Origin: a virus
Direction: 5' to 3' (one strand)
IMG/VR virus record: IMGVR_UViG_3300006109_000424
Location: 7,617-71,616 of that record
DNA: 64,000 nucleotides
Below are positions 71 to 45,700 of this stretch, piece after piece (within the stretch, counting starts at the first letter, position 1; each line of letters opens with the position of its first letter). The position numbers were made by a program, and so were the translations under genes. The notes below the pieces were generated by a model. The model saw only the letters and a list, made by a program, of their open reading frames with translations. It searched no databases and was not told the DNA's origin.

Positions 71-767
71 TCTGCCAATCCTTATAACTATCCACCTGAC
101 CGTTAATACACTTATATACGCCTGTTAGATTAAGACTATGTTGTTTACAAAACTGAACTATTGACCCATTGATAGAATATAACTGTTTACTTGGGCTAAT
201 AAATTCGTAGAACTTAGCATTGCCATTATTTTTACCAGCTCGTATATCAGGATTCTCGTTGATATACTTTTTAAGTTTTATCGATCTATCCTTGCGTATA
301 GCCTTAGCTTTTTTACCATAAATCTCTTCGTAGGTCATTCCTTTGTGAGTGCCTAGTTTGGACTTGGCGATATTCTGCTTCCGCTCATCGGTATGCGGAC
401 CATTTATACGACCTTTTAACTGTTTACTAATCTTCCTGCCTACAGATTTAAGAACAGGGGTTGTTCTAGGAATGCTTCCACCATCAGCCGCTTCGGGTTT
501 AAGATTTGCCCATACCTTCTTACCATTGCTGTCTTTTGCGTTGACAATATTCCATAAAGTGCTGTAATATTGACCTTTTATTTTTATCTCATCTTTGGAG
601 TCGGTTTCGAGTAGTATTTCAGTATCGATAGCGTAACCGTGTTTTTTAAGATGTGCCGTCCAGTAGGAGCCAGATCCTGTATATGTGTAAGGATTTCTTT
701 TGGTATAACCTAAATATTTTAACCCTGTCTTTTGATGGGTCTTTTTGTATAGATAGTAAATAATCAT
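45..767 (-). CDS. Free-standing GIY-YIG (Seg-like) homing endonuclease with NUMOD-type DNA-binding motifs
   Basis: YYLYKKTH..TGLKYLGYT..NPY.Y.GSG..W..HLKKHG N-terminus; NUMOD3-like HTDERKQNIAKSKLG; C-terminal helix-turn-helix-like FCKQHSLN...YKDW; AT-rich; SD AAGGA upstream. Confidence 0.85.
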   Translation of the reverse strand: MIIYYLYKKTHQKTGLKYLGYTKRNPYTYTGSGSYWTAHLKKHGYAIDTEILLETDSKDEIKIKGQYYSTLWNIVNAKDSNGKKVWANLKPEAADGGSIPRTTPVLKSVGRKISKQLKGRINGPHTDERKQNIAKSKLGTHKGMTYEEIYGKKAKAIRKDRSIKLKKYINENPDIRAGKNNGNAKFYEFISPSKQLYSINGSIVQFCKQHSLNLTGVYKCINGQVDSYKDWQIKRLNISI

Positions 768-836
768 GCTGATGGTTCCTTATAAACTGTTAGAGTAGTT
801 GGATATGTCCGTATCGCGAACTACACCCTTATTTAG
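768..836 (-). promoter_or_regulatory. Late-type promoter (TAAATA) and structured leader of the endonuclease
   Basis: Minus strand: TAAATA-agggt-GTAGTT cgc GATA cggaca TATC c AACTAC, followed by an imperfect second hairpin with the AAGG SD in its loop. Confidence 0.55.
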
Positions 837-842
837 CACCGG

Positions 843-871
843 TTGACCAGAAAAGACCCATTTGCTATAAT
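843..871 (+). promoter_or_regulatory. sigma70-type early promoter
   Basis: TTGACC-17 bp-TATAAT, with TG at extended -10 position. Confidence 0.85.
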
Positions 872-877
872 AGTAGT

Positions 878-1065
878 ATGTTAAGTAAGTGGTTGCGACT
901 GATCGGCGACTGGTTTGTTAGTTTGGGTGCAAGCCCGCAAACTAATCGTTTTAGTGGAAGTTCGAGTTAAACAACCATGCGCCAACCTGGGCAGACTCAG
1001 GGTCATAATGAGTAGAGTTCAAGTAGGGGCCGTCAACATACGGTAGCCTACACTATATAATTAAC
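878..1065 (+). ncRNA. Candidate structured non-coding RNA (~185 nt), family unrecognised; contains a 30-codon ORF at 878-970
   Basis: Has its own promoter; stems TTAGTTTG/CAAACTAA capped by GGT-GCAA-GCC (GNRA loop), TGGTTG/CAACCA, CCTGGG/CTCAGG, GTAGG/CCTAC plus GCCGT/ACGGT, and closing GTTAA/TTAAC. Confidence 0.55.
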
Positions 1066-1124: not shown

Positions 1125-2411
1125 ATGAGCACAGCCACTACAGCCAACAAAAAAGAGTCAGACAAGTTCAAGGACTTGCTGGGTCCTACAGATCCTAAAC
1201 TGGATCGTGACGTCCGCGAAAAATTAATCACAGCCCGTGTGGGACTCTTACTCCGTGCCAGTTTCTTTGGTAACTTGGCCACTCGGTTGAAATTGGTCAA
1301 TGCCGACGGTTGGTGTCCTACCGCCGCAACCGACGGGCGTAATTTTTACTACAATAGCCGTTTCGTAGACATGCTCAAACCCAAAGAAATCGAGTTCCTG
1401 TTTGGGCATGAAGTATTGCATTGTGTGTACGATCACTTTGGACGTCGTGGTGATCGTGACCCACAGTTGTTCAACATTGCCAATGACTACTGTGTCAATG
1501 GTGACTTGAAAAAACATCGTGTAGGCGAGTTTATTACCACAGTTCCGTGTCTTTATGATGCCAAGTATGAAGGCATGAGCTCAGAAGAAATCTACGACAT
1601 CCTGTACGAAAACGCAGAAAAGATCGATATGAATCAGCTGATCGACAAGCTGTTGGACGAGCACCTGGATGGCGAAGGTGGTGGTTCGGGCGAAAAAGAA
1701 GGCGATGATGCTAAAAATGGCAAGGGTCGTCCCAAAATTAGTCCTGAAGAAAAGCAAAAGATCCGTGACGAGATCAAAGAAGCTGTCTTAGCAGCTGCCG
1801 CGGCAAGTGATGGTGCCGGCAACTTGCCCATGGGTGTAAAACGCATTATTGAAGACATGACAGCACCCAAGATGAACTGGCGCGAACTGCTTCGTATGCA
1901 GTTAGAGTCAACCATGAAGTCCGACTATACCTGGATGCGTAACAGTCGCAGAGGCTGGCACATGGACGCTGTCATGCCCGGTATGAAGCTGGACCCTATG
2001 ATTGATATTGCTGTCAGCATCGATGCGTCTGGATCAATTGGTGAGCGCATGCTCAAGGACTTCCTAAGCGAAGTGGCCGGTATCATGGAACAGTTTCCGT
2101 CTTATCGTATTCATGTGCTGACCTTTGATACTGAAGTTTACAATCCTTGTCAGTTTGATAGTGAGAACTTGGAAGATATCAAGGACTATGAAATTTCAGG
2201 AGGTGGTGGTACCGACTTTGATTGTGTATTCCAATACTTCAAAGATAATGAAATTGAACCCAAGCGTCATATCATGTTTACAGATGGTTATCCCAATGGT
2301 TCGTGGGGTGATGAACAGTACTGTGATACTGTGTTTATCATGCACGGTACTACTACGATTGTTCCACCATTTGGTCAATATGCTTACTACGAAGAAGAAA
2401 GTCGGCACTAA
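1125..2411 (+). CDS. DUF2201-type putative metallopeptidase with C-terminal VWA domain
   Basis: TAATDG, HEVLH (HExxH), NIANDYCVN; VWA MIDAS DASGS, GGGGTDF, FTDG; SD AAGGA. Confidence 0.85.
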   Translation: MSTATTANKKESDKFKDLLGPTDPKLDRDVREKLITARVGLLLRASFFGNLATRLKLVNADGWCPTAATDGRNFYYNSRFVDMLKPKEIEFLFGHEVLHCVYDHFGRRGDRDPQLFNIANDYCVNGDLKKHRVGEFITTVPCLYDAKYEGMSSEEIYDILYENAEKIDMNQLIDKLLDEHLDGEGGGSGEKEGDDAKNGKGRPKISPEEKQKIRDEIKEAVLAAAAASDGAGNLPMGVKRIIEDMTAPKMNWRELLRMQLESTMKSDYTWMRNSRRGWHMDAVMPGMKLDPMIDIAVSIDASGSIGERMLKDFLSEVAGIMEQFPSYRIHVLTFDTEVYNPCQFDSENLEDIKDYEISGGGGTDFDCVFQYFKDNEIEPKRHIMFTDGYPNGSWGDEQYCDTVFIMHGTTTIVPPFGQYAYYEEESRH

Positions 2412-4072: not shown

Positions 4073-4361
4073 TGATTTTGTAGATCAATGGGAAAACATA
4101 CTTGCTGAAGTAAACAAAACGGATGTACCGTTAGAGTGTATTAAAAAGGTAGTAATAAAGTTGATGGGTGGTCGTCAGAAGACCATCAACATACACACTT
4201 TGCTCAAGCAAGGGCTGGATCTAGAAGAAGTAGAAACCATGCTGACCCGTTACTTTACCGAGAACGATCACGAGATACGCGACGTGGACTTTGTAGTTGA
4301 CATCCGTGCTGTGGCTAACTTAGTACAACCCGAAACTGATAAACTATTAGGCAAACTCTAG
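4059..4361 (+). CDS. hypothetical protein
   Basis: 100-aa ORF overlapping the upstream gene. Confidence 0.7.
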   Translation: MPLIDDFVDQWENILAEVNKTDVPLECIKKVVIKLMGGRQKTINIHTLLKQGLDLEEVETMLTRYFTENDHEIRDVDFVVDIRAVANLVQPETDKLLGKL

Positions 4362-4362
4362 A

Positions 4363-4391
4363 TCGCAAGATCCGGAGTTTTTGTCTATAAT
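4363..4391 (+). promoter_or_regulatory. promoter TCGCAA-17-TATAAT, leaderless geometry
   Basis: TATAAT 6 nt before ATG 4398; same -35 hexamer and spacing recur at 61126. Confidence 0.6.
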
Positions 4392-4397
4392 AGCAGT

Positions 4398-4640
4398 ATG
4401 CCCAAGATCACACTACATACCTTTACCATGGGTGATGTTGAAGACCCGTACTTGTATGCGGCCTTTCCTATATCTGAGTGGCAAAAGACTGAACAAGGCA
4501 AGTGGGTCATGGAACATGCTATAGGCGAAAGTACTTTTTATTGTAATGCAGATGCTAATACCTATGGCGTAAGAGTTGATATTGTAGGCGAGTTATCGGA
4601 TCAAGATTTAACTTATTTTAAATTACGGTGGGGCCAATGA
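4398..4640 (+). CDS. hypothetical protein
   Basis: F.MGDVEDP.LYAA.P...W..TE.G.W; ends TYFKLRW. Confidence 0.75.
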   Translation: MPKITLHTFTMGDVEDPYLYAAFPISEWQKTEQGKWVMEHAIGESTFYCNADANTYGVRVDIVGELSDQDLTYFKLRWGQ

Positions 4641-5617
4641 AAATACTCGTAACCGGTGGCTTGGGTTTCATAGGACATGGCGTAGTCGCACAGTTAGAGT
4701 CTCAAGGTCACGAAGTGGTTGTGGTGGACAATCGCAATGACTATGGTATACTCAGTGCCGACGAATTGGATCCACTCATGGCCGAGCGGCAACAACAATT
4801 CAGCACACATAGAGTATTTGACTACGATATACAAGATCAAGAAGGCATGGCCTGGGTATATAGACACTATCTACCCGAAATAGTCATACACCTAGCCAGC
4901 TTTCCACGTCAAAAAGTAGTGAACGCTCGCCCACAACTGGGTAGTCAGACCATGAGCGAAGGACTACTGAATTTGCTGGAACTAAATGCTCGATATGATG
5001 TGCGTAAATTTGTATATGTGAGTTCCAGCATGGTCTACGGCAACTTCAAAGACACCTACTTTGATGGTGTAGACGAATCACATGACTGTAGACCTTTGGG
5101 ACAGTATGGTATCATGAAGCTGGCCGGCGAATGGTTAGTTGAAGATTATGCCCGCAGGACTGGCATGGAATATACCGTTCTAAGACCCAGTGCTGTATAC
5201 GGACCCAGAGATGTTGAAGATCGTGTGGTATCTAAATTTTTCTTGGTTGCAATGCGTGGTGGCATCATACAGGTCAACGGTGAGCATGAAAGTCTAGATT
5301 TTACTTACGTGTCCGATGTAGTGGACGGCATAGTGCAAGCAACTGTAAGCGATTGCACCAACCATCAGATCTTCAACATCACTCGCGGATCTGCAAGAAC
5401 CTTGTTGGAAGCAGCAAAATTGGCAGTCAGCATTGCCGGTTCGGGTAGTATACAGATCAACGAACCTGACGGAAATTTTCCCAGTCGAGGTCAATTAAAT
5501 ATACAACAGGCCCGGACAGCGTTTGGATTCAATCCCAAAATTGATATAGAACAAGGCTTTGAAAAATACTATGAATGGCTTAAAAATAGCATTTACTGGA
5601 CTAAAAAAACAGTATAA
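4637..5617 (+). CDS. NAD-dependent NDP-sugar epimerase/dehydratase (extended SDR)
   Basis: ILVTGGLGFIG, HLAS, SSSMVYG, YGIMK (YxxxK), VYGP, DFTYVSDV; ATGA overlap start. Confidence 0.92.
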   Translation: MKILVTGGLGFIGHGVVAQLESQGHEVVVVDNRNDYGILSADELDPLMAERQQQFSTHRVFDYDIQDQEGMAWVYRHYLPEIVIHLASFPRQKVVNARPQLGSQTMSEGLLNLLELNARYDVRKFVYVSSSMVYGNFKDTYFDGVDESHDCRPLGQYGIMKLAGEWLVEDYARRTGMEYTVLRPSAVYGPRDVEDRVVSKFFLVAMRGGIIQVNGEHESLDFTYVSDVVDGIVQATVSDCTNHQIFNITRGSARTLLEAAKLAVSIAGSGSIQINEPDGNFPSRGQLNIQQARTAFGFNPKIDIEQGFEKYYEWLKNSIYWTKKTV

Positions 5618-6647: not shown

Positions 6648-9396
6648 CATAAGTGGCCAACCAGGCCCAGTCGTAACTTTTCCGTAATTCAGTAAAATCA
6701 CCGCCCACTGTGTCATAATATTCCACAGCGTCCTGGGCGCCGCGTTGGCTCCATTTTTCTTGGGTATTATCTTGTTCTAGCCATTGACGTAATCTATATT
6801 CATTTTCGACATCGGGCAATGAATGTCTTAATTTAATACATTCTCTAAATGCTGTACGCCAACAGGTCCAAGCATCATAATGATAATTGGCAGTTCCACT
6901 CAATATAGGAACAACTTCGTGCGCCTGATCAAGCGTAAAGTCCAAGCCCGGAGCGGTATTTTCCAATACCAATTTTTTGTTGTAGGCAATAATGGCCTGA
7001 TGTCCATAGGTCAATTCATTTACTGGATTACGAGCATGAAAAATATAATGTTTAGGTTCCTGCAATCTATCAGGTTGCCAAGACCAATCAAAATCGGAAT
7101 TGGTTTCTAGCTTGGCAAACACAGCAAAAAACCAAGGTGTGGTGCTTAATTCAGCTGCGGCTCGGTATGCGGCTACACGTCCATTTACACCCGAACTGCG
7201 ATGTATTTTATTTTGATCAGATGTATGTGGTAACTGTAACCAATTTATTTCAGCAATGGGCTCGCCATTATCAATAAAAACAATATCCAGTAATTCGTCC
7301 GTAATTAAATGACGTTGACGACGATCAATATTGGCATAATCATATAATTGAGTTCGAATATATGGTACAGCCACCTTGGGAACAATAACACTTGTAGCAC
7401 CTTTTGATAAAGGCACGATGGTTTTGGTCTTTTCTCGCCATAATGGTACCGCAGGAATTTCATTTAATTCCTTTAATTCTTTTGTGGTGAAAATGGCCAA
7501 TGGTCCTGCAAAATCCATTTCTTTTACAGCCGCAACCTGTGTATCATTTGTGTGTTGAACAACCGGTAAAGGACGTCGTGGCACTGACCGATCCATGTAA
7601 TTGATATCATACCAATCCAATAATTGAATCTTTTCTGCACGATAACGGAATGTGGGCACATGCATAAAGAAAGTATCACCGAATTTCTGCCCGTCGCTGG
7701 GAAATACATGCAACATTCCGGCCTGCCATATTTCAGGATGCCAGCTAAAATCAAAATTGGTATAGTCACAAATGCTGGAGCAGATCCAAACAAATTCATA
7801 TTCGCTGGGTATATTTTTAACCAATCTGCGTAGGGTATCCAAATAATTGTCAAAATAGCGCACAGTTTTAGTGGTATTTTCTATTTGCCCAGCGTATCCA
7901 TCCAAATGATCTATTTCGTAAATGGCCGTGGCTACTCGTTCTGTGCGTATTCGTATTTGATCAATGTATTTGATTTCGGTGGCACCGGGCACATGATACT
8001 GTGGTCCACCGGTGCGTTGATGTTGGGTACCAAATTGATAAATGTAAGGTTGTTCCGTGGCGTCAGGATGCCAGGTCCAATCAAATGATTCCACATCTGC
8101 ATGTTCTGGAATAACCCAACAGGAATCTTTGGCAATCTTTTGCGCCCGTGGTTCAGTAATGTATTTGCGTTCGGTAGCACCGGGCACAGTATAAATGGGA
8201 CCACCAGTTTTTTGCCATTGTGTGCCAAATTCGTAAATGAATGCTTGTTCCGTGGCATCCGGAGTCCAGCTAAAATCAAAACTGTTGACATCAATGCCAG
8301 TAGGTACGGTCCAATTGCGATCTGTGGGCAACATGCGAGCTATTTGTGCAGTAACATACTTTATCTCGGTGGCACCCGGTACGGTGTATGTAGGGCCACC
8401 AGCACGATTCCATTGTGTAGCAAATTGGTAGATATAAGGAGTATCTCTACTATCTGGATGCCAAGTAAAGTCAAATGCCTCTAGATTAGTATTTTCTGGA
8501 ATAGTCCATAAATCGTCTATTTTAATACGCTGTGCTCTAGGCGCACTAACATATTTTACTTCCGTTGCTCCGGGTATTATATATTGTGGCCCACCCGTAG
8601 CTTGATGTTGTGTGCCAAACTGATATATGTATGGAGGATCTCCTGGGTCCGGACGCCAAGTATAATCTATATTATCAATATTATCTGGTACAACCCAATT
8701 TGTCTTATTTTCTTTTAATTCAGCTCTAGGATAAGACATATATTTTATTTCAGTGGCACCCAATACCGTATATTTAACTGTGGGCATTATTTCTGCTCGA
8801 TGCCATTGATTACCAAATATGTAAATATAAGGTGGATCTCCGGGATCCGGAACCCAAGAATAATCAAAGTTGCAGTCAACTAATATATCCCAATTGCTGT
8901 CTTTATTTTCTTTTAATTCAGCTCTAGGAGTAAAAATATACTTTATTTCGGTTGCACCAGGAATATTATATTCTACTGTGGGCATACGATTTGCTGGATA
9001 CCATTGATTTCCAAACACATAACGATAGGGCGGATCAAATGGATTGGGTGCCCAAGTATAATCAAAGATAATATCGTCTTTTAATTGAATATAATTATTA
9101 CGATTATCTCGATTTGGGATTATATTTTTGTGAAACCGATATTGTATTTCAGGATTATTTTTAGGAACTAAAAAAGTACCCGAATATTCGTGATGCTGAC
9201 TGGGCCAAGTGTGAGTATATTCACTTTCCCATGGCACAGGTTCAAATAAAAAATCAAACCCGGTATAGTCCGATAAGTATGTTATCCACCAAAAATACCT
9301 GGTAGCGCAAGATTTTTTTGCATGTTCGATATCCTGTGCTGGTCGCTCATGTGGGAAAAGATTGGGTTTGACACCAGAATAAAATACATCAAACAT
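6613..9396 (-). CDS. 927-aa protein: six ~65-aa tandem repeats plus C-terminal glycosyltransferase-like domain
   Basis: Repeat FDx(T/S)WxPD..PYIYxFGxQ...GGPxYxVPGATExKY; C-terminus aligns by eye with 27495-28433 (GVxG..AA..AAA, WRxxFRExxK). Confidence 0.75.
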   Translation of the reverse strand: MFDVFYSGVKPNLFPHERPAQDIEHAKKSCATRYFWWITYLSDYTGFDFLFEPVPWESEYTHTWPSQHHEYSGTFLVPKNNPEIQYRFHKNIIPNRDNRNNYIQLKDDIIFDYTWAPNPFDPPYRYVFGNQWYPANRMPTVEYNIPGATEIKYIFTPRAELKENKDSNWDILVDCNFDYSWVPDPGDPPYIYIFGNQWHRAEIMPTVKYTVLGATEIKYMSYPRAELKENKTNWVVPDNIDNIDYTWRPDPGDPPYIYQFGTQHQATGGPQYIIPGATEVKYVSAPRAQRIKIDDLWTIPENTNLEAFDFTWHPDSRDTPYIYQFATQWNRAGGPTYTVPGATEIKYVTAQIARMLPTDRNWTVPTGIDVNSFDFSWTPDATEQAFIYEFGTQWQKTGGPIYTVPGATERKYITEPRAQKIAKDSCWVIPEHADVESFDWTWHPDATEQPYIYQFGTQHQRTGGPQYHVPGATEIKYIDQIRIRTERVATAIYEIDHLDGYAGQIENTTKTVRYFDNYLDTLRRLVKNIPSEYEFVWICSSICDYTNFDFSWHPEIWQAGMLHVFPSDGQKFGDTFFMHVPTFRYRAEKIQLLDWYDINYMDRSVPRRPLPVVQHTNDTQVAAVKEMDFAGPLAIFTTKELKELNEIPAVPLWREKTKTIVPLSKGATSVIVPKVAVPYIRTQLYDYANIDRRQRHLITDELLDIVFIDNGEPIAEINWLQLPHTSDQNKIHRSSGVNGRVAAYRAAAELSTTPWFFAVFAKLETNSDFDWSWQPDRLQEPKHYIFHARNPVNELTYGHQAIIAYNKKLVLENTAPGLDFTLDQAHEVVPILSGTANYHYDAWTCWRTAFRECIKLRHSLPDVENEYRLRQWLEQDNTQEKWSQRGAQDAVEYYDTVGGDFTELRKSYDWAWLATYAMIKQNLVPNQ
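7940..9075 (-). repeat. six intragenic ~195-bp coding repeats
   Basis: PGATE(I/V/R)KY (one LGATEIKY) six times; DNA copy TTATTTTCTTTTAATTCAGCTCTAGGA near 8705 and 8903. Confidence 0.85.
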
Positions 9397-33027: not shown

Positions 33028-33627
33028 TGCCGCACTTAAATTTGTAAGAGTTTGGATGCGCAAAGTATAATCTATCTGTATCTGGCGATTCAAGCTCTTT
33101 TGTACCGGATGAAAAATCACGTGGGTGATCAAAGACAAATTACTAGCACTACCAAACCAACTTTGCAATCCGAGCTCATCAAATACATATTCACCATTGA
33201 AATTGGTGCTGTTGTCAAAGGCCTGCTGACCTGCAGGTTCGCCGTAGTCCAGCAAGCAAGTGGTCACAATATCAGTATAGACATTGCCTGATGTATGTAG
33301 TACTGTAAGATAATTGTTGGTAGGATCCTGATTGGCCGCTGAATATTGGTTTACCACTTTGGCATAGGTTTCATTGTACAAACTGGCATTTTGACCTGTG
33401 GTATTGGGTGGCAAATAGGTTATGACTCCAGTAGGATCTACTGCACTGCCACCGTTACCAAATGCCATGGTGTAAATCCAGCCAGTATTGTCGTTGGTAA
33501 GGCTGTTGGACATGGCAATACTCATGTTTTCGTAGTGGATAGCATTGTTTTTTTCTACAAAAACTTCACCCGAGGCCGGGTCGTATATTTTTAAAAATCC
33601 GCGGATCATGGTAGGCGCTAAAATCAT
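33025..33627 (-). CDS. virion/baseplate structural protein
   Basis: MAFGNGG, LDYGEP, FDELGL, THVIFHPVQKSLNR.I.I.YT. Confidence 0.7.
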   Translation of the reverse strand: MILAPTMIRGFLKIYDPASGEVFVEKNNAIHYENMSIAMSNSLTNDNTGWIYTMAFGNGGSAVDPTGVITYLPPNTTGQNASLYNETYAKVVNQYSAANQDPTNNYLTVLHTSGNVYTDIVTTCLLDYGEPAGQQAFDNSTNFNGEYVFDELGLQSWFGSASNLSLITHVIFHPVQKSLNRQIQIDYTLRIQTLTNLSAA

Positions 33628-33784: not shown

Positions 33785-36700
33785 TTATAGCCCACGCAAA
33801 AACCTTGCAGCTAGAGTATTGGTTTCTTGCAAAGGTATTCCGTTAGATGCAGTACCTGGACCTTGTTGATACCAGGTGACACCTCTGCGTACTAGCATAG
33901 TAACATCAACCCCAGCTGGCGGTGCTACATCAAAGATTATTTCTGTTGGATTAAAGTTGGCCACAACATAGCCGTCTAATACTCGTGTACCACCCACATA
34001 TACTTCTAACTGCTGACTGGGGTCGCCTTGGCCGTAGTCAAAAGATCCAGGTTCGCCAGTTACAGTACCGTGATCAAATGGAACTTCGCCAAATCCTTCG
34101 GCAGCGTTGTAGGTTAGATGTATATTATAGGCAATAAACTCGGTTGTGACTCCGTCGGCTAGGATATTATCGCTTACAATATAGTTCTGATACTCAATCG
34201 GCAACAGGTTACCTCGTCCCAGATTGTAAATTGCAGAGCCCGCAGCGTGTGCGCTAGCGGCAGTACCGGCTGTACCTCTTAATAGGTTACTCACTGTGTT
34301 GGTGTCCAGATCCCAGTTACGATACATGATACGTTCTGCACCAACTGTCAACACTCCCCACACATTATTTTGCAAATTTGGTTGCGTTAACGCAGACACA
34401 TTAGCTACATGTACTACATCATCCGTGGCCGCCAAGGCCTGAGTTAATACAGTTGTAGTAGCTGGTGTGATGCTGTAGGTAGCCTGTATTCCTCGCATGT
34501 CCTGGAAGATTCTAAAAGCCATGGCACTGGGCACAGTGTATTCTGTAAAGCTGACCACTGACAATACTGTCTGCAACGGAATAGGTGGACCGGGCAATAT
34601 AATGGTAGATCCGTTGACTGTAAATCCTATTCCGTTAAATAGCCATTTTCCGTTTAAATTTACCAACAGTCGGTCTGGATCAACAATGGTAAATCCAAGG
34701 TCAAACACATTTTGTTGTACTACAATGCCTTCGGTATAGTCATACGATCCTGAAGTGCTATTGACCACTGCTGTATCAAAATTGACTGTATCAAATCCTT
34801 CAGTAACTGTTTCGCCCTTAGTGGTAGGTCCGACAAACACGTGAATTGCAATGCCCTGTTCTTTGGTGCTATTCCAGCTGACAATCTCAACAATGTCTCC
34901 AACACTAAGTCTTACACCGGCTGAAGTTTGGAAAGTCAACTGGCCATTGGTTACCCAATATTGCGCTGCAGTCCTTACAGCAACCAGCACAGGAGCACCA
35001 GCGGCAGGAGACGAATATAGATGTACTGCACGCGGAGTTGTGCTGTTGACATATGGTGTGATTGTGAAATCGATACCCAAGATCAATGCTGTATTGTTGA
35101 CGTATACTGATACATCGTTATTAGAAATCAATGACTGACTATAGCCACCATTTTGAGGCAGATCAAACAAGGTTGTGACTCCGTCGCCCACGTAAGGAGC
35201 ACCTTCGTATGGCCGAGCCTGTACACCGTTTACAGTGACTACTAAATTTACTGGATTAGTGCCCGACATGCTATTGGTCAAGGTAACGGTCTGACTAGTC
35301 ACGATGTTAGAATTGGCCACTACAGTTTCAAACACTGGCAAACTATAGCTATAGGTAGGACCAGTAGATGGATAGCCCAAGGTGGCTAAGTTGATACGAT
35401 CAGTGGCACCGTATGTCTGAGCAAATGTGATTTCCGTTTGGGTTGATCCTGCACTAGCATAGGTATAATCTACCCCCAGTTTCAAAGGTGTTTCGCCATT
35501 GTAGATCACAAATTCATAAATGGTTCCTGGCACAGGCGGATTATTGTCAAGAGTTGTATAAGGCACAATCAGTTGTTTGCCACCGATCAGATCAGATCCA
35601 AGACAGGTATGATTGTACAACTGGTTGCCACCTCCTACACCAGTAACATAGATCACTAAGGTATCACCGGGGTTAGAGGTGTCTGGATCCACAGTCAATT
35701 CCCAATTGGCCCAATCGTATGAAAGTGGTTCTAGTGCTAGTCCTGCTGTGGCATTAAACAAGACTACTACCATAGGATTGGCTAAAATGCCGTAAAAATT
35801 CAATACTGGATTGGTAGGATCGTAGGTATAGCGTTTTGTCGCGACCGGAAATCCAGCGCCTTGCCCGGTCCAGTTTGTGCCCGGTGTGGTATAGACACGC
35901 AGATCTAAACTGTCAAATTCGCCACCAGGTATCAGTTCTTCGGGTGCATGGCTACTGAACACATCCACGTATCCGCCGCCACTTACGTTGATATCTGTAG
36001 GTCTAGTTCCTAAATAGGTATCAAGATAACTGCTAGAATATTCAGCATCCAAAATATTATAATCGTATGTGGGTCGACCATTGAGATCGATTGATATGTT
36101 GTCATATGGATTTATATCGTAGTTGCCTACATCGTAGCCGGTATTTTGATCGTAGCGTGGCGCTGTAACCTGCACACCAGGGTAATCAACACCGTCAATT
36201 AACAAAGGTAAACTGAGTCCGGGCATGTTGACGCCGGGTACATAGTAACCCATGGTGCGGTCAACTCCGCTTAAGGTACTTGCATTTACCAGACTCCATT
36301 GGGTTGGATCAAATATTGTGCTGTCTACCGTACTGTTGGCCGACCATACTTGGTTGTTCCATCGCACTTCGGCACCAGCAGGATAACTGACACCGGCTTG
36401 CCATTTGGCTATGGTAGTTTTGTATTGGTAACGATCATACCTGATGACAGTTTTAAATGACCGCACTAATCCATTTTCCATAATCGGCACTGCAACAGCA
36501 TCTTTTCCATTACCGCCAATCAGTACAATAGAAGGAGTGATAGTGTATTTTTCAGTATTGTTGGCAATTTTAACAGCTATAACCTGACCAGAACTATTGA
36601 TCACCGCGGCAAAGTTACTATCAACAACACCGTTGACCATAACCTGCGGCACAGAAGTATATCCCGATCCTGGGTTGGCAATTGTGACTGATTCAATCGA

Positions 36701-39700
36701 TAATGCGTAGTTATTATACCATTTGTTCCAAGGTTGTTCCAGCCAAATCTGCGCATTGCTAGCTGTATCGCTGACAGTATTTTCTATTAGGCTGGTTGAC
36801 AAGGTGTAAGGCGTCAACACTGGACTTATAAATTGTGGAATTTCTACGGTCGTATCCCAATGGGCCGGAACATCATAGTCAGTGGGTGATCCACCCCAGA
36901 TATCTGTGCCATCATAGATTAAATTAAAGTTTAAAACCTGTGTGTGGAAAGGTTTGACCTCTTGAAAATAGTCTTCCACAAAGGTTGAATTATCAGGTTG
37001 ATACAATTGGTATGGCAAGAGTGATCTCAGGGTATGATCAATTTCAACAAAACTAGTTTTGATCAACCAGTCAGGACTGGTAAATTCTGAATAGATATAC
37101 TGGAACATCAGGATCAAGGCCTTGTTACGCTCAATTAACAACTCGTCCGTAAACAATTCTTGATTGATAGCTTCGATTATGTAACGAGTTTCAATGGCCG
37201 GATATTGATCAAAATACTGCGCATCAAATGGTTGTACATCAAACCCAAAACCGCCTGCTGATTTAGAATAGTTCCATAACGATTCGCTGAATTTGATAGT
37301 CCCGTCCTGTAATCCAACCCGTTGCCAATCGCTGGCCGTACCGACAACAGCATTACGCAAATAAATTTCCCACTTGCCAATGCCGTTAGCTGTGACCTTG
37401 ACACTACTGCCCAGCGGAGCTTCTGCAACGCTTAAGGTCTGCAGGCCGGATACATTGGTCACTTCGGCCACGGGCTGTATACTGCTATTGTAGCCGGGCA
37501 AATACCAGTTGATATAACTCCAATATAACGGAGTATCATAATTTTGTATGCGCACCAATTGCAGTTTTGGTGGTAATACTACATTAGCGCCGGCAACAAC
37601 TTCGTAAATAGTCCAGCGACCATTTTGACTGCTGTCTGATAATACCAAATATTTCCAGCCAATGGGTACCTGGGCAAGATCTTGATAGGCTAGTATTTCT
37701 AGATTAGGAACTTCAAAGTTCCATGCTCCCGAATTGGCCTGCGGAACTGGTTCGCTGCTGTTTAATAAATTAAAGTTGCGAGTTTCACTAATGGGATATT
37801 GTGCCAGCACAGTGTTGGCTCGGCCCAAATAGTTTTGTAATGCCATAAATCTATCAGCAAACATACTCTGGCGAGGACGGAACTGTACTCCGTACTGCTG
37901 ACCCGGGCTTAATGACGGGTCGGGCACAAGATTTCCAGCGACATCCTGGCCGCAGAAACTGTCTAGTAATTTTCTATACAAATTGGCGTTGAGGAACGAG
38001 TCTGGTCGTCCGTCGGCAATAAATGTATATTCGGTATGTATGTCACTAGAACTGCCCTGGTGTTGGCGTTCATATTCTATATGCAACACAGTATCACTAG
38101 CCGACAACAAACTCTTAGCGTTATATAGGGCCACTGTGTTAGCATTTATGGCCGCAATGTATGGAATACCACTGCCTACTGGATTTAAAATATAACTAGC
38201 AATGCCGGTAGTGCTGAGTGTTTTTCCATTGGCTGTATCGATGCTGGTTAGTCCAGTTACCCAGAAATAATAATTAGTGACAAATATACCGGCACTATTC
38301 AATGAAGAATGTATGGTATAGCTAACAGTACTAAAAGGTTTGCCAGGACCAATATAACTAGCCGGTGGCACATCACTTTCTATCCATTGATAGATATCAA
38401 TGCTACTGCCCGGGAAAGTCTGTGCCCACTGGCGACTGGCGTAAGTAATATCTTCTTGATTGGGTTCAACAAATCTTACAGTGTAAGTATTCCACCAAAT
38501 TTGTCCCACATGGCCGGCGCCCCAGCTGATACCAGTATTATGTACAGCGCCCTGGTTATAGTCAGCTGGATCAACTGCACCAATATAATCTATATTCCTG
38601 CGGGCCACACCCAGTATTTTACCTTGCAAAGGATCAATAAAATCAAAATAGGTCTGAGTACTGTTCAACAATTTGTTGTACGAATAAACTGAGTTAATCA
38701 ACGTAACATCGGCCACCGGAAATTGTTTGTAAATTGTAGTCCATGACGGAGTGTCGTTGGGATTTTTAAAGATAGCCACTGACCCGTAGTTGTTGGTTCC
38801 GGGAGCTCCTACTAATAACAATCCGTTGCCGTAGTTGACCGCTGTACCAAACAGATCCAAGGTACCAATATTGGATGTATAAATTTGTTGTCCAAATACA
38901 AACTGTGGAGGATTGTTTATGGAACTGGTTGAACTAGGTAGATCATCAAAGGTATAAACTACTCCGCTGTTGTGTACAGTGTTAAAGAAGGTAGTGCTGT
39001 GTTCATCAAAATAAGTTTCGCCAGCATCAAATGTAGTGGGTTCGTAGGTGTTTCCGTTAGGTGCGCCAACGACTAAATTTGTGGCGCTGTAACTGACATC
39101 AATTGAGCTACCAAATCTAGCGTAGGTAACTGGATTAGGACTTTCAATAGTTTGCGTGTAAACAAAAGTCTTAAATCCAACGGCTTCAAATGCCGATCCA
39201 ATAACTCCGGGCAACACTGTAAGCATGTCATACTCGTCTGCAGCCAAGGCATTGATCACGCTAATAGTAATTCTACCAGCTACCACAGTAATTACACTGC
39301 CCATGGGCGGTGTGGTCACAAATGCTATTTGTTGTGTGGTGTTGTTATAGGTGTAATTTACACCGTTGGGTAATTGCAACACCGAGTCAAGGTAGACCAC
39401 TGTATTATATGCTGTAGCGGATGAATAGATGTTGCCAACGTCAAATATCTTAGTTAACCCATCTCCGTACAAGATTACATCGGGTACCAGGGTCGCTACC
39501 ACATTGGGTATACCCGATGAATTAATAGCTTCCGCAAATCCTTTTATGGTATTATTGGGTACGGCTGGCACAGCTATTTCTGAATCATTAATACGCAAGG
39601 TATCGCCAGCAGTCAGGACAGGATTGGCCACAGTACTTGTGGTCACCCCATACAGTCGAGATTGATTCAATTGCCGTTGTACCAATCCGGCTTGAGCTAT

Positions 39701-42700
39701 GATAATTTTATCCTGTTGAACATATGTCAACGGAGCACCTACATAAACACTACAATTGTGCGGACAAACAGCCACGGCCCGGCCAAACGCCGATTTGTCT
39801 ATTACAGTATCGGCTGTGAGTTTTTGCAGGAACTGGAACTGATTGGTTTCAATTTCTAAAATATCTCCCACAGTTAATACAACACTGCTGGATAATATCA
39901 AATTAGAACCTGTGACAGTAAACTGCCCGTTGATATACTGTGCTGTGTTGGTTAAAAATTGCTTGTTCAGCAACACCGCCACAGGATTGCTGATACTGCC
40001 CGGGATTGCGTAGGTGGTCTGACCGGCGTTAGACACAATGTATCTAACTGTACTTCGATCAAAAACATAGGTTGATCCAGCGGTAGCAATAATATTTCTG
40101 TCGCTGTCAATTGCGCTATCGTTGTCTGCACCAACAATTATCTGTCGGCCATCGGTGGAGCAAGTCAAGCTAACACCAAAATTGGCATCGTCGGCTAATC
40201 CTGGTACTGTGATGTCATTAATATACTGCCAATAGGATGCAGCATCCACTATGATTGTGGCGCTCGGAGCCGGCACAGTCAAGAAAGTAATATTGCCACT
40301 ATCAAATGTATAATCAATGTAGGGTCTTTGCAACACACCATTAACATACACAGTGAATGCGTCAATTGTAGTAGCTGTGTACAAATAGTTTTGCAGAGAA
40401 AATACTGCGGTGTTATTAACACCAACCCCAGCAAATGTAAAGGCTGTAATGCCGCCAGCATTAACACCAGTTACCGTAATGGTTAAATTATTGGCCGAAC
40501 TGCCTGCCGGGTCAATGTGTGTATAGTTAATTGTAAGTGTGTCACCAATTGCATATAAATTACCCGGAGCAGTTAAAGTGACATTGTACAATCCGCGAGT
40601 GTTTGTCACAGTAAATGTGGCATTTAATCCTAAACCGGTGGTGCTGTTTTGTTTAACATCGTAGTATACAGCATAATCTAATTGTGCTTGCACTCGACGA
40701 GAGATAATAACAGTTTGTCCAACGGCTGGCGCAACAAACAGTTGTACTAAATTTTCAGTCACAGTATAATCGTGTCCGTATATCAATTGAGTGCTATTGA
40801 TTCTAACCGACAACTGCAAAGGATAAGTGTTATCAATAACAATGCTGTTAACATAGCTAAATGTAGCAGTGGTGCCATCCCCGGCATAATTTATTTCCTG
40901 TGCCGGTATATCAACCAGACCATAGGCATATACGCGATTGGCTCCAGGTGCACTGATATACATCCATCGCTCGTCGTCACTTATGATCACGGCTGTTCCA
41001 AACCCTGTGGCTGAAAAATTCTGATCGGGTGCAACTAATAATTGTGTTTGTAATAGGTCGTTGGTGCCAGCAGGTTGATACAAGGTAACTGCATATCCAG
41101 CACCAGAATTACTGAGATTTGCACCAGCTACCACCCAGGTTTGATCTCCAAACGCCACACTGCTTCCGTAGCCAGCTACATCAGAGGCCAACAAGTTCAG
41201 TTTGGTATTTTGTACATACGGTGCAGAAATGCCAGGTCTATAGCTGTATACTGCACCCATACCAGAATCCGCTGTTGGGCTTCCTACCAACAAAGACAGA
41301 TTGTTACGGCTCTGTGCTACACTGGTACCATAGGACGAATCAGCTTCGGGTGTTGATGCTGCAATATTTTCAACGTTTGTGAATTGATATTGTTTTTGTA
41401 TAACCTCCCAATGTCCGTCGCCGTCGTTGTCTACCCAGACCGTGGATCCGGGCACCAAGGAATTAGCATAGGGCAAGTTGACCACATCGCTAGACTGCTT
41501 TACACGCATGGTTTGTAAGCGGAATACTAGTCCAGTTCCGGTGATTGAAGTTTTGTTTTGATTAGTAAATGCGTATTGTATTACCACCGTGTTGATTGTA
41601 GGAACACTTAAAACTCGATAAACGCCGTTGACGGCGGAATCAAATAATTTGATGATGATCAAATCACCTACTAACAATCCGGTGGTCAGACTGTTAAATT
41701 GAGCTATGCTAGTGCCGTTGAGATTGTCAGTTAACTGTGTTAATTGACCTGGAACTTCAACACACTGATAAATGTTCCAATCGTAACTATTGTCTTGTGC
41801 TACCCAAATACTGGTTCCGATGCCAACAGTTGACAAATGTGACGCAATATTGCTAGGATCATTCAAATTGTAGACTGTGATATCTACATCATTCACATTG
41901 ACATAACCTGCAGTGGGCAAGGCTGTGTCAAGATTCCTACTGTAGGTTGTAGGTAAAATATCAGTGTTGGGTATTTGGTAACTTTGAGCCCAAAGATTTT
42001 TCAAGTATATGGACTGATCGGCCTGGCTAGTGTTGCCTGGATTAATAATTTGCACTGTGCTAGGATTTCCAGTCAATTTGGCTTCATTGAGATTGACCTC
42101 AAACCAACTGCGGTTGGCGTTAGCACCGTAAGTACCAACCAACACTCCCCAATCTTGATAGATATTGTATTGACCGGCGGCCTGATTAAAGTTGACATTG
42201 GTCAGTAGTTCGGTTGCATTCAAAGTGCCCTTGTTTGCAATAAATTGCTGATAGAGATTAACCTGACTTATACTGTCTAGGTTTAGATCGGCCATGTACT
42301 GTCGTGGCACAAATCCAATCAAATTAAACGCCAGGAGATCGTTGCTATTGTTAAGATTAGCAGTTTGCACATTATAACTGTTGGCCAACTGATCAGCTCG
42401 CAATGTTAAGTTTTGCAAAAGACCTTGTTGTATACTTTGATAATTGCTCTTGTACCAGTTTGAATAAACAAATTTTGTAGATGGCTGTATAATTCCAGCG
42501 GCTTGCCAGTAGCTGTATTGATAGGTAACAATGTCACCTTTGGTGTAGCTGGTATTGGGTTGCCATTGCTTCACTGTGAGTGGGTTGTTAAGTATAAAAC
42601 CTTGTGCGTTTAATGTGCCATCCCATTGAGTTGATGTCTGCGCAGACAAGATCAAACGACTTTGTCTTTCGGCTGTGACCGGATCATATATAAGATCGTT

Positions 42701-45700
42701 AAAAACAGTACGATTGTCAAATACTACAATATCTTCAAAGTCGGTAAATTTTATTTGTACAAAACTAATGGTCTGATTACCTCCCGGGGGTGGTTTGGCC
42801 ACAAAGGTATCACCAAGACGTTGTATAATCAAATTTCCAGGATTAATAACTCGACGATTTTGATCTAGAATTACTGTTTCAGGAGTGTAATTTACTATGC
42901 TGTTGACCACAGCACCAGGACGATACACCGACAACTGTGTGGCTGCTGGATTTAAATTGATAATAGTTCCAGGCATCCATCCTTGGTTGGCAAAATACAA
43001 AAACTCCTGTGCCATCTGTATCCAGTTGAGCGTGTAGCCATTTTGCAACTGAGTGAATGTCATGCCTTGATCTGTAAGATATTGTCCATAGCTCAGAATA
43101 AAATCTACGGTGCTGGCCAGATTAGCAAAAGTATATCCATACGGAATCTGCACAATATTTTTAGAATACTGAGACGGTGCCGAAACCGAGGTGTTGCCGG
43201 CTGTGATTGTTTGTGTGGCAGAATTGATTAGGCTGGCATAGGTTGAAAAATACGGTTGATAACTGCTGTAACCATAGATGGTATATCCGGCTTCAGCGAC
43301 TTCAATCACTATTGAACTATAAATTAACTGCGAGTAAGGTTGATTCTGATACAGTTGTAAATTATAACTTTCTGACGGAATCAACAGAGTAGCATTGGTA
43401 CTTTCTGGCCCAGACCTTTCCAGATAGATGTTTACATTTTGTTGGGCAGAAAAACTAGCCATGCGATAGCACAATCTTACATCAAGATTGGACAAGTCTG
43501 TAGTCAAGGCATCGGTGCTGTTTATACCCAACAACTGATTGTAGTCCACGATCCAGTTGATATAACTAGCCTTGCTAACACCGTTTCCGTACACTTGTAT
43601 TTTACTAGGATCTATTCTGTAACGACCATTATAAAGGTATTGGTCAAACTCTGTGTTGTAACGATATAGATCGCGATCTGCAAACAAACTAAAAAATTCA
43701 GCCGGGCGGGTCAAGGCCAATAGTCTCATGATTGCAAAAGGATAGCTACTACTCATCCACCACGAAGCTTCTACTGGGCCGCCATCGCCCACCGTCCAAC
43801 TTTTAACAAATCCATAAGGATCAAATCGACCAACTACACTTTCTGTTGGTGGTATCAACTGTCCTTGATCGTCAACTGGAATTACCGATGTTAATCCTGG
43901 GCGACGATAGCTGGATCGAACATAAGGGGATATAGGATCGGCCACAAGTCCAGTTTCAAGATCTCCCCATAACACCAAATTGTCACTGGTATATGGTGCA
44001 GGTCCGTAGCGGGTGACCCACCAGTCGGGTTCCTCGCTAAATCCTAGCATTTCCCACGGAGTAAGATTTGGAGTTAAGGTATCATAAAACCAACGATAAA
44101 TGCCGCGCCAAGCGCCTAATAACGGTGTACCGTCAAGTTTATTACCAGCTTGGCTGTAATTATAAGTGTAGGGATTATCGGCAATGTAGGTTTGTGCGGT
44201 ATAATCTACTTTGTTATAACCAACCCAGGCCAGGAAACTTTCCCCTAGTATCTGAGTAACTTGTTCTTGTGTGTAATCTGTAGTTCTGAAATAGCCCGGA
44301 ATCACATCCTCGGCTGTAAGAGGAGGAGGGTTGCCGTCATTCTTTAGATTGTTATAAATGCGAGTCTCAAATTCCAATAGTACTTGATCCCGGATGTCGC
44401 CAAAGGCCACAGTGATTGATCCGTCATGTCCTTGGATAACTGGTGTGGGATTTACATAATCGGTGTCTAAGAAAATTTCTGGACAATATTTAGGATACAG
44501 GCCCAACTTGGTTGGTGTGTTGGGTACAAAATTACCAGCGGTGTTGCTGTACTCATTAATAGTGACCACATCGCCTACAATCAACGGAATGGTAATGGTC
44601 AATACCGGACTGTCAGCGGATACCACATAGTCACGACCGCGAGTTAACAATCTATTGTTGACATATACCAACAAGCCAAGGTAATTTGATTCTGTAAAAT
44701 TGTAAGTCTGAACGGTGTTAAAAACAGCCGTGGTTATTGGATTAACCGTAGTCGAGTTTGATACAGATACTAGGCCTGTAGGCAACATGTCGCTCCAATA
44801 AAACGGACTTGTGCTTGTGTCTCCTACGGTAATCTTTGTAATGGCGGCATCTAATAGTTGTGCCACTGTTTTGTTTTGATAATCACCAAGACTGAAAGTC
44901 GTAACTGCTTGCAATAGTTGTGATTTGAATTGTATGTATTGTTGGCTGTTATAGGCCAACGCATCAAAAATATTGTACCGCTGACTACGCATAAAATAAC
45001 CAGTCAAGGTCAAGGGCGAGCTTTGTTGTAAAATTTGCAGACCGTATGGAATAATATTGCCTAGATCTCTAGTGTTGTTTGCACCAATTACTGGACCTTG
45101 CAACGGAATAAGATTTTGCGCAATGGTACTGTAATGGTTGCGTATGGTTCCTAGAGTAAACCGATCACTGTTGCCATTAAACGGATTATTTTCTAAATTG
45201 ATAGGAACTTGATAGAATGCGGTGGTACTGGTTTGATCGCTCAGGACCTGTACTTCAATTAAATCTCCCGGAACATAAGTGGTCAATAAATTGATTGTAG
45301 TAGTTGTAGCTGTGGTGGTGTAGCTGTAGTTGTAGCTTTCTTGAAATGTGGCATTGACAAATATCTGCACAGCAGGAACGGTGTTGTTGGTATTGACTGC
45401 CACATCCAACAATAAGGGACCACCATCATAAGTGAATGTAAACTGCTGACGTATTAAACTTGGTGTTTTTGCAGTTTGCCAACCAATTTCTTTGATAAAA
45501 TTGGTACGGTTTTCATATTGCCGCGCGAATCCAGAACTGAGAGGCACTGTGTAACCTTGATTGTTTTGAGTGTAGTTGAACGAATCTGTGTACAGGTTGT
45601 TGTCAAACACAATATCGCCTATATTGGTCAAGCTCAAATAAGTTATAGGAAAGCCCAGCACTAGATCTGGTGCACCTGAGCTGACTGCATAGCTAAACAA

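Follow-up and report, generated by a model that had tools for sequence, protein, structure and literature searches.

A small orphan stretch between two early promoters beside an endonuclease-like gene in an uncultivated freshwater jumbo phage

The stretch at 878–1065 of our window (the 64,000 nt of DNA analysed here, bases 7617–71616 of a 71.6-kb IMG/VR virus record with an estimated completeness of 21%) could well be what an early cassette bounded by promoters carries as its payload; the cassette comes with a putative GIY-YIG-type homing endonuclease gene and would give rise to a leaderless 30-codon transcript reading on into a VWA gene. The upstream promoter, P1, would be a duplicated copy within the sigma70-type family of early promoters of this phage, and transcription from it would start at the A of the ATG at 878. 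The resulting leaderless mRNA would be translated over its 30 open codons, pass a stable hairpin at 1023–1051 and continue across the second promoter, P2, to the VWA/DUF2201 gene. On this reading, the stems predicted for the stretch are incidental to an orphan sequence and do not represent a conserved RNA family. One candidate for a new RNA family is thus removed, and the promoter-to-promoter unit would be explained as the payload of a mobile cassette. The setting illustrates how uncultivated jumbo phages reshuffle early promoters together with very small orphan genes and genes for homing endonucleases.

Two promoters of one family and a ~1 kb insertion

The VWA gene downstream of the stretch (1125–2411, plus strand) encodes, according to a family scan, a DUF2201_N metallopeptidase-like and VWA-like protein of 428 aa. 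Viral contigs yielded 125 relatives of this protein, and the 80 best of them (L003–L082) make up the related loci used in this study. Contigs of 320–364 kb carry several of these loci, and the phage represented by our window therefore belongs to an uncultivated freshwater jumbo phage family. The region was found in 24 freshwater or pond sequencing runs, all of them DNA runs; no RNA run containing the locus is among these listed holders.

P1 (843–871) and P2 (1068–1096), the latter being the resident promoter of the VWA gene, lie on the plus strand, read TTGACC-17-TATAAT and each fit 11 of 12 consensus positions, with a TG before the −10 box. Both are part of a 49-nt direct repeat (840–888 and 1065–1113; 76% identical, ungapped) which includes the first transcribed bases, confirming the near-consensus sigma70 promoter and the near-identical second one reported in the preliminary description. 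The 71.6-kb record harbors seven sites that fit at least 11 of the 12 positions, compared to a mean of 2.4 (maximum 6) in 30 Markov simulations, and four of the seven are TTGACC-17-TATAAT sites on the plus strand inside 5 kb. Moreover, 79 of the 80 related loci have a promoter-like site ∼50–92 nt 5′ of the VWA gene start. Thus, P1 and P2 are real members of one sigma70-type early-promoter family.

Comparison with the closest relatives (L003–L007, L075 and L077) showed that DNA homology ends at window position ∼10–15 and restarts at 1053, with ∼45 nt between these points in the relatives. In relatives that lack the endonuclease gene, an upstream ORF of ∼100 aa stops directly against P2. Positions 1053–1067 of the window (plus strand) match the last codons of this ORF, its stop codon and a CGG abutting P2, and are a relic of the junction as it was before the insertion. 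The window carries its own version of the end of this ORF (record 7384–7686; 3′ end at 1–70 of the window, plus strand), which is colinear with the relatives codon by codon at the protein level and has diverged at the DNA level from ∼15 onwards (15–70). The break in homology and its resumption show that ∼15–1052 is an insertion of ∼1 kb, containing the replacement ORF end, a gene of 240 aa on the minus strand, the leader of that gene, P1 and the payload. The link between the stretch and the neighboring GIY-YIG gene that had been suggested earlier therefore stands as a co-insertion, both lying within the same ∼1 kb, and falls as a functional link.

A sister contig, L101, carries at the same place an endonuclease gene that is 89% identical at the amino acid level, and is 90% identical to the window over 37–884 and 84% identical over 1068–1379. 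Between P1 and P2, however, L101 has an unrelated, A/T-rich sequence of 256 nt with a 71-aa ORF behind an AGGAG motif; reading this ORF by eye, we see apparently two hydrophobic, membrane-type stretches. Homology between the two contigs stops at ∼890, the position where a Shine-Dalgarno (SD) sequence would be expected. The slot between P1 and P2 is thus variable, with a like endonuclease next to a different payload in the sister contig. Promoter-to-promoter units are also listed 5′ of the VWA gene in the relatives (25 units); most of them contain a small ORF, and many of these ORFs follow an SD-like AGGAG or AAGGA. A metagenome scan with the endonuclease protein returned seven loci, none of which provided a new P1–P2 interval (e.g., the L105 sequence begins a mere 15 nt ahead of the gene, and L106 and L101 are one and the same contig).

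The leaderless 30-codon frame

The ATG at 878 is located 6 nt after the −10 box of P1 and opens a 30-codon ORF (878–970, plus strand) without an SD sequence. We collected 229 distinct promoter instances (TTGACN-17-TATAAT with at most one mismatch) from all loci and the record, and found an ATG exactly 6 nt past the −10 box in 24 of them, including P1, while each of the offsets 1–5 and 7–15 has an ATG in 0–1 instances. Eighteen of the 24 cases open ORFs of at least 60 aa from ∼12 ORF families, among them a 77-aa family (7 instances) and a 96/97-aa pair, a count that is inflated by kinship. In L041, L042, L046 and L056, the VWA gene itself starts at this distance and has an N-terminal extension. 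Examples of TATAAT-N6-ATG are found at L040 3615, L016 2886, L056 3909 and L041 1197, and on the minus strand of the record near 33388 (∼window 25772). This suggests that leaderless early mRNAs are systematic in this jumbo phage family, with a fixed TATAAT-N6-ATG design being used repeatedly. If so, about a tenth of the family's early promoters would initiate transcription at an AUG, and mini-cassettes of this kind might travel with homing endonuclease genes.

The other six of the 24 cases open ORFs of less than 60 aa. One of these, a 7-aa ORF in L056, may be a truncated copy, since all seven of its residues are identical to the start of a 98-aa ORF found in L046. In L047 and L050 (3631), we observed a 14-codon leaderless frame whose stop codon overlaps the ATG of an SD-led 77-aa ORF (ATGA); the two versions of this frame differ by 2 residues, and it may represent an upstream mini-ORF that is coupled to the following gene.

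Using a codon model trained on the 32 long ORFs of the phage, we obtained a score of +8.4 bits for the 30-codon frame and of −15 and −40 bits for the other two frames. Among 30-codon windows taken in frame from true genes, +8.4 bits falls at the 31st percentile; the score ranks in the top 3.6% when compared with 192 spurious ATG-ORFs (at least 30 codons) and in the top 4% when compared with stop-free shuffles. From these score distributions we estimate a Bayes factor of only ∼6 in favor of coding, which for a frame of this length is no more than suggestive.

Searches with the predicted product yielded no relatives, and hence no conserved protein product for the leaderless frame. In the protein collection the 30-aa product is a singleton cluster from one contig, it has no usable match in the ESM atlas, and a phmmer search against 1.84 billion representatives returned itself and P0014, nothing else; we judged P0014 to be spurious, as its six tandem repeats inflate the score. 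Apart from the 30-aa frame, the region between P1 and P2 offers frames of 43 aa (915–1046) and 41 aa (minus strand), in agreement with the earlier statement that it has no long ORF. That the transcript might carry a leaderless 30-aa ORF had been mentioned in the preliminary description as an additional function; it is now the better-supported reading, because the ATG spacing recurs throughout the family and the codon usage is gene-like.

The lambda cI mRNA transcribed from PRM is the classic leaderless mRNA of a phage. As in leaderless mRNAs, the start codon of the P1 frame coincides with the predicted transcription start and is not preceded by an SD sequence. In contrast to them, the start site of P1 is a predicted one, and the product is an orphan of 30 aa.

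Searches for homologs, fold and alternative readings

When 768–1124 is compared to the 80 related loci, the promoter parts alone match. The 162 nt in between (891–1052) are an orphan payload without a homolog anywhere searched. BLAST searches (blastn and tblastx) gave no significant match for this inner stretch in the record of the phage itself or in the 80 related loci, nor when repeated against all loci, and the whole records of 84 relatives (50 + 34) contain merely 14–25-nt matches in unrelated contexts. Nothing was found among INPHARED phages in near and distant search modes, or in viral_contigs with three exact words. Two exact words searched against genome_contigs gave 0 matches and then a single one of 21 nt, which we attribute to chance, since it lies in a high-GC MAG with unrelated flanks. 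At the protein level, a 47-aa stop-free frame had no match among 5.8 billion proteins at near and longer lengths. We rejected a host-derived fragment because these searches gave no match, and a degraded copy of the upstream ORF family for lack of tblastx similarity. Antisense or target pairing of the payload with the rest of the 71.6-kb record amounted to merely 11–12-nt matches.

Contigs assembled from sequencing runs contain the stretch in three of the four runs examined. Run X5 has an identical copy across 1–1490 and run X8 a copy of 777–1117 with 2 differences, whereas run X18, from a pond sampled in another study and year (record 10), has an ungapped copy of 826–1105 with 12 differences (∼4% substitutions). 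The endonuclease coding region of X18 shows 16 differences in 361 nt, a rate close to that of the payload region. No joint that skips the stretch is present among the 15 of 23 joints listed, all of which derive from contigs.

The minimum free energy (MFE) fold of 878–1065 predicted by ViennaRNA consists of the stems 889–895/972–978, 909–913/951–955 and 918–925/938–945, the last with a GCAA loop, as well as 986–991/996–1001, 1023–1051 and 880–884/1061–1065. These are the very stems that had been drawn by eye in the preliminary description, which took them for a multi-stem RNA of unknown family. With an MFE of −53.9, compared to a mean of −47.65 (sd 4.45) for 200 dinucleotide shuffles, the whole fold has a z-score of −1.40, and 17 of the 200 shuffles fold as well; the minus strand of the stretch folds equally well (z −1.48). 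The fold is thus no better than that of shuffled controls, an outcome which the preliminary description had itself named as speaking against such an RNA. Among sub-windows picked after the fold was seen, the rod at 885–980 reached z −2.33 and the hairpin region at 1018–1066 z −3.62 (1 of 200 shuffles each), and 960–1022 reached z +0.51 (135 of 200 shuffles). The tip of the rod is a hairpin at 918–945 (plus strand) with 13-nt arms and the GCAA loop, and is part of the 30-codon ORF. The hairpin at 1023–1051 (plus strand; −13.5 kcal/mol) lies 16 nt 5′ of the −35 box of P2 and has no U-tract. Rfam searches, covering among others group I/II introns, hammerhead, twister and HDV-like ribozymes, riboswitches, tmRNA and SRP RNA, gave 0 matches at the gathering score in the whole window and 0 at E≤10 in 760–1130 on both strands, and ARAGORN detected 0 tRNAs or tmRNAs. 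This agrees with the earlier remark that no tRNA, SRP, tmRNA or hammerhead core can be recognized, and the Rfam comparison that had been recommended returned no family at either threshold. No terminator-like site that could mark a 3′ end was detected by a terminator scan of 871–1068.

A structured non-coding RNA of ∼185 nt that is transcribed from P1, and possibly acts with or on the neighboring nuclease, is very improbable given these data. The agreement of the drawn stems with the MFE fold, the low z-scores of the rod (885–980) and of the hairpin (1023–1051) and the GNRA-type GCAA loop would fit such an RNA, but the better sub-windows were chosen post hoc, and neither the z-score of the whole fold, which the opposite strand equals, nor the Rfam and ARAGORN results point to an RNA family. 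In addition, the 3′ end is not defined by a terminator, 0 of the 84 related records carry the stretch, and L101 has the same nuclease with a protein gene in the slot, indicating that the nuclease needs no such RNA. The early description as an RNA of unknown family is accordingly not borne out, as the whole fold (z −1.40), the empty Rfam searches and the missing homologs all argue against it. We also regard it as unlikely that the stretch is an attenuator or insulator, in which the hairpins at 918–945 (followed by UCGUUUUAG) and 1023–1051 would stop or damp P1 transcripts before they reach P2. The second hairpin is stable (z −3.62) and sits in an A/T-rich stretch 16 nt before the −35 box, and similarly placed stem-loops of the PeSL type, as far as described in the published account, lowered the expression of a reporter to a degree similar to that seen with rrnB T1 (PMC2839356). 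However, neither hairpin has a proper U-tract or is called by the terminator scan. In the 18 relatives examined, the promoter directly follows the stop of the upstream ORF and is not preceded by any consistent hairpin, and therefore this promoter family does not include a stem-loop.

Tentatively, the stretch could also be an inert relic, left behind when a small early gene was lost by replacement or deletion at the boundary between promoter and SD sequence. P1 would then do no more than supply the VWA gene with an additional, redundant promoter, and any peptide made from it would be functionless. In line with this possibility, the leader of P1 agrees with that of the family as far as ∼890 but beyond this point lacks the SD sequence (TAAGTAGGAGC in L101 vs. 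TAAGTGGTTGC in the window), which is present in L101 and at P2; the payload has no homolog at the DNA or protein level; and L056 contains a leaderless ORF that is probably truncated. Crossovers between the −10 box and the SD/ATG are likewise reported for repeated promoter cassettes of T4-type phages in the sections of PMC2839356 that deal with them. The gene-like codon usage of the 30-codon frame argues against a relic, as does the X18 contig, which keeps the stretch ungapped with ∼4% substitutions, a rate near that of the endonuclease coding region. On the other hand, a run of 30 open codons behind an ATG is no rarity even by chance, the frame contains the strong hairpin at 918–945, and the family consensus has an ATA at the position of the P1 ATG. 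Since ATA is one change away from ATG, the ATG of P1 may be accidental. Our preferred reading, a cassette payload with a leaderless 30-codon transcript, leaves room for whatever function such a peptide might have. Its more specific form, in which the P1 transcript serves both as the leaderless mRNA of a 30-aa host-takeover micro-protein and as a structured leader of the VWA gene, being one instance of a family habit, seems doubtful to us.

The endonuclease-like gene, its leader and related cassettes

The minus-strand gene of the insertion (45–767) encodes a protein of 240 aa which has no Pfam match and no PDB sequence match. In the AF2 model of this protein, the N-terminal domain is predicted with a pLDDT of ∼80 (mean of the whole model 59.6), and the top three Foldseek matches of this domain are the catalytic domain of I-TevI (1mk0, 1ln0; probability 0.99, TMt 0.60–0.63, E 0.06–0.14). 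The gene occupies one site, where it is present in the window and L101 and absent from the closest relatives. Based on these fold matches and its presence or absence among relatives, the gene fits a free-standing homing endonuclease gene with a predicted N-terminal domain that is GIY-YIG-type at the level of the fold. Independently of this, we noticed a perfect 11-nt inverted repeat in the window (ATGGGTCTTTT at 735–745 and AAAAGACCCAT at 851–861), the arms of which flank the leader and the start of the endonuclease gene. The first arm corresponds to codons 8–11 of the gene, and the second one lies in the P1 spacer and is absent from the P1 spacer of L101.

Directly 5′ of the endonuclease gene, we identified a leader module of ∼83–85 nt (757–841, minus strand) which comprises a TAAATA motif, a two-helix hairpin, CUCUAAC, an SD sequence and the start codon. 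Its start region is conserved, with ATG or ATA followed by ATATTTA in most copies. A covariance model (R1) built from 8 leader copies was searched against 685 kb and detected 11 copies, all 11 of which are located directly 5′ of endonuclease-like ORFs (window 757–841, L101 599–683, L010 5874–5956, L113–L116, L118, L102, L104 and L110). The ORFs behind the copies differ in type, being either GIY-YIG-like or HNH. In the hairpin, 99–100% of cells are paired and 6 of the 10 pairs are changed on both sides, and the covariation score was reached by 0 of 500 shuffles. Thus, the leader module is a much better structured element than the flagged stretch at 878–1065. The read depth in the metagenome contigs peaks at bins 721–880, which suggests that many more leader copies exist in the population. 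The module recalls the control of T4 endonuclease genes by a late promoter plus hairpin, as outlined in the relevant part of PMC2988022; the seg43(25) hairpin shown there is located just 5′ of a ribosome binding site that it does not sequester.

The organization of the insertion resembles that of T4-like free-standing homing endonuclease cassettes (seg/mob), as far as these are portrayed in PMC2988022. Shared properties are an intergenic gene that is present or absent among close relatives, a diverged flank beside the endonuclease gene reminiscent of co-conversion, a leader hairpin and late-promoter-like motif belonging to the gene, and promoters for downstream host genes that are associated with the insertion. 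Unlike the seg/mob genes, the putative homing endonuclease of the window is GIY-YIG at the fold level only, with no Pfam match, and its cassette adds an outward-facing early promoter and a payload.

A second point of comparison are the PeSL (promoter-early stem-loop) and ORFan cassettes of T4-type phages, in which orphan genes lie between copies of an early promoter (Arbiol et al. 2010, PMC2839356). To the extent that this account covers them, they share with the P1–P2 unit repeated strong sigma70-like early promoters around a small orphan payload, replacement of the payload between close relatives with a breakpoint in the promoter/SD zone (here, window vs. L101), and a stem-loop just 5′ of the next promoter (the hairpin at 1023–1051 before P2). 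In contrast to the published PeSL, a conserved stem-loop is missing from the motif in our phage, where it is not consistent before P2 in 18 relatives; P1 has a leaderless ATG instead of an SD sequence; and neither mini-circles nor deletion joints were seen, as judged from contigs and 15 of 23 joints listed. The hosts of PeSL in that account are also T4-type phages, whereas ours is an uncultivated freshwater jumbo phage that may or may not be T4-like. Because its promoter motif does not include a conserved stem-loop, the P1–P2 unit is PeSL-like and not a PeSL.

Upstream of the window, at record 4330–5415, we noticed an ORF of 361 aa which, judged by reading its sequence alone, is a P-loop (GPPGIGKS) ATPase-like protein. 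This ORF and the DUF2201/VWA gene are each preceded by a promoter of the P1/P2 family. Between them lie ∼3 kb of small paralogous ORFs (with C-termini like ...LKYLNN), and it is in this array that the endonuclease insertion is located. Farther downstream, the minus strand of window 33785–48211 carries a single ORF of 4808 aa followed by one of 1153 aa, and virion-protein matches adjoin this region.
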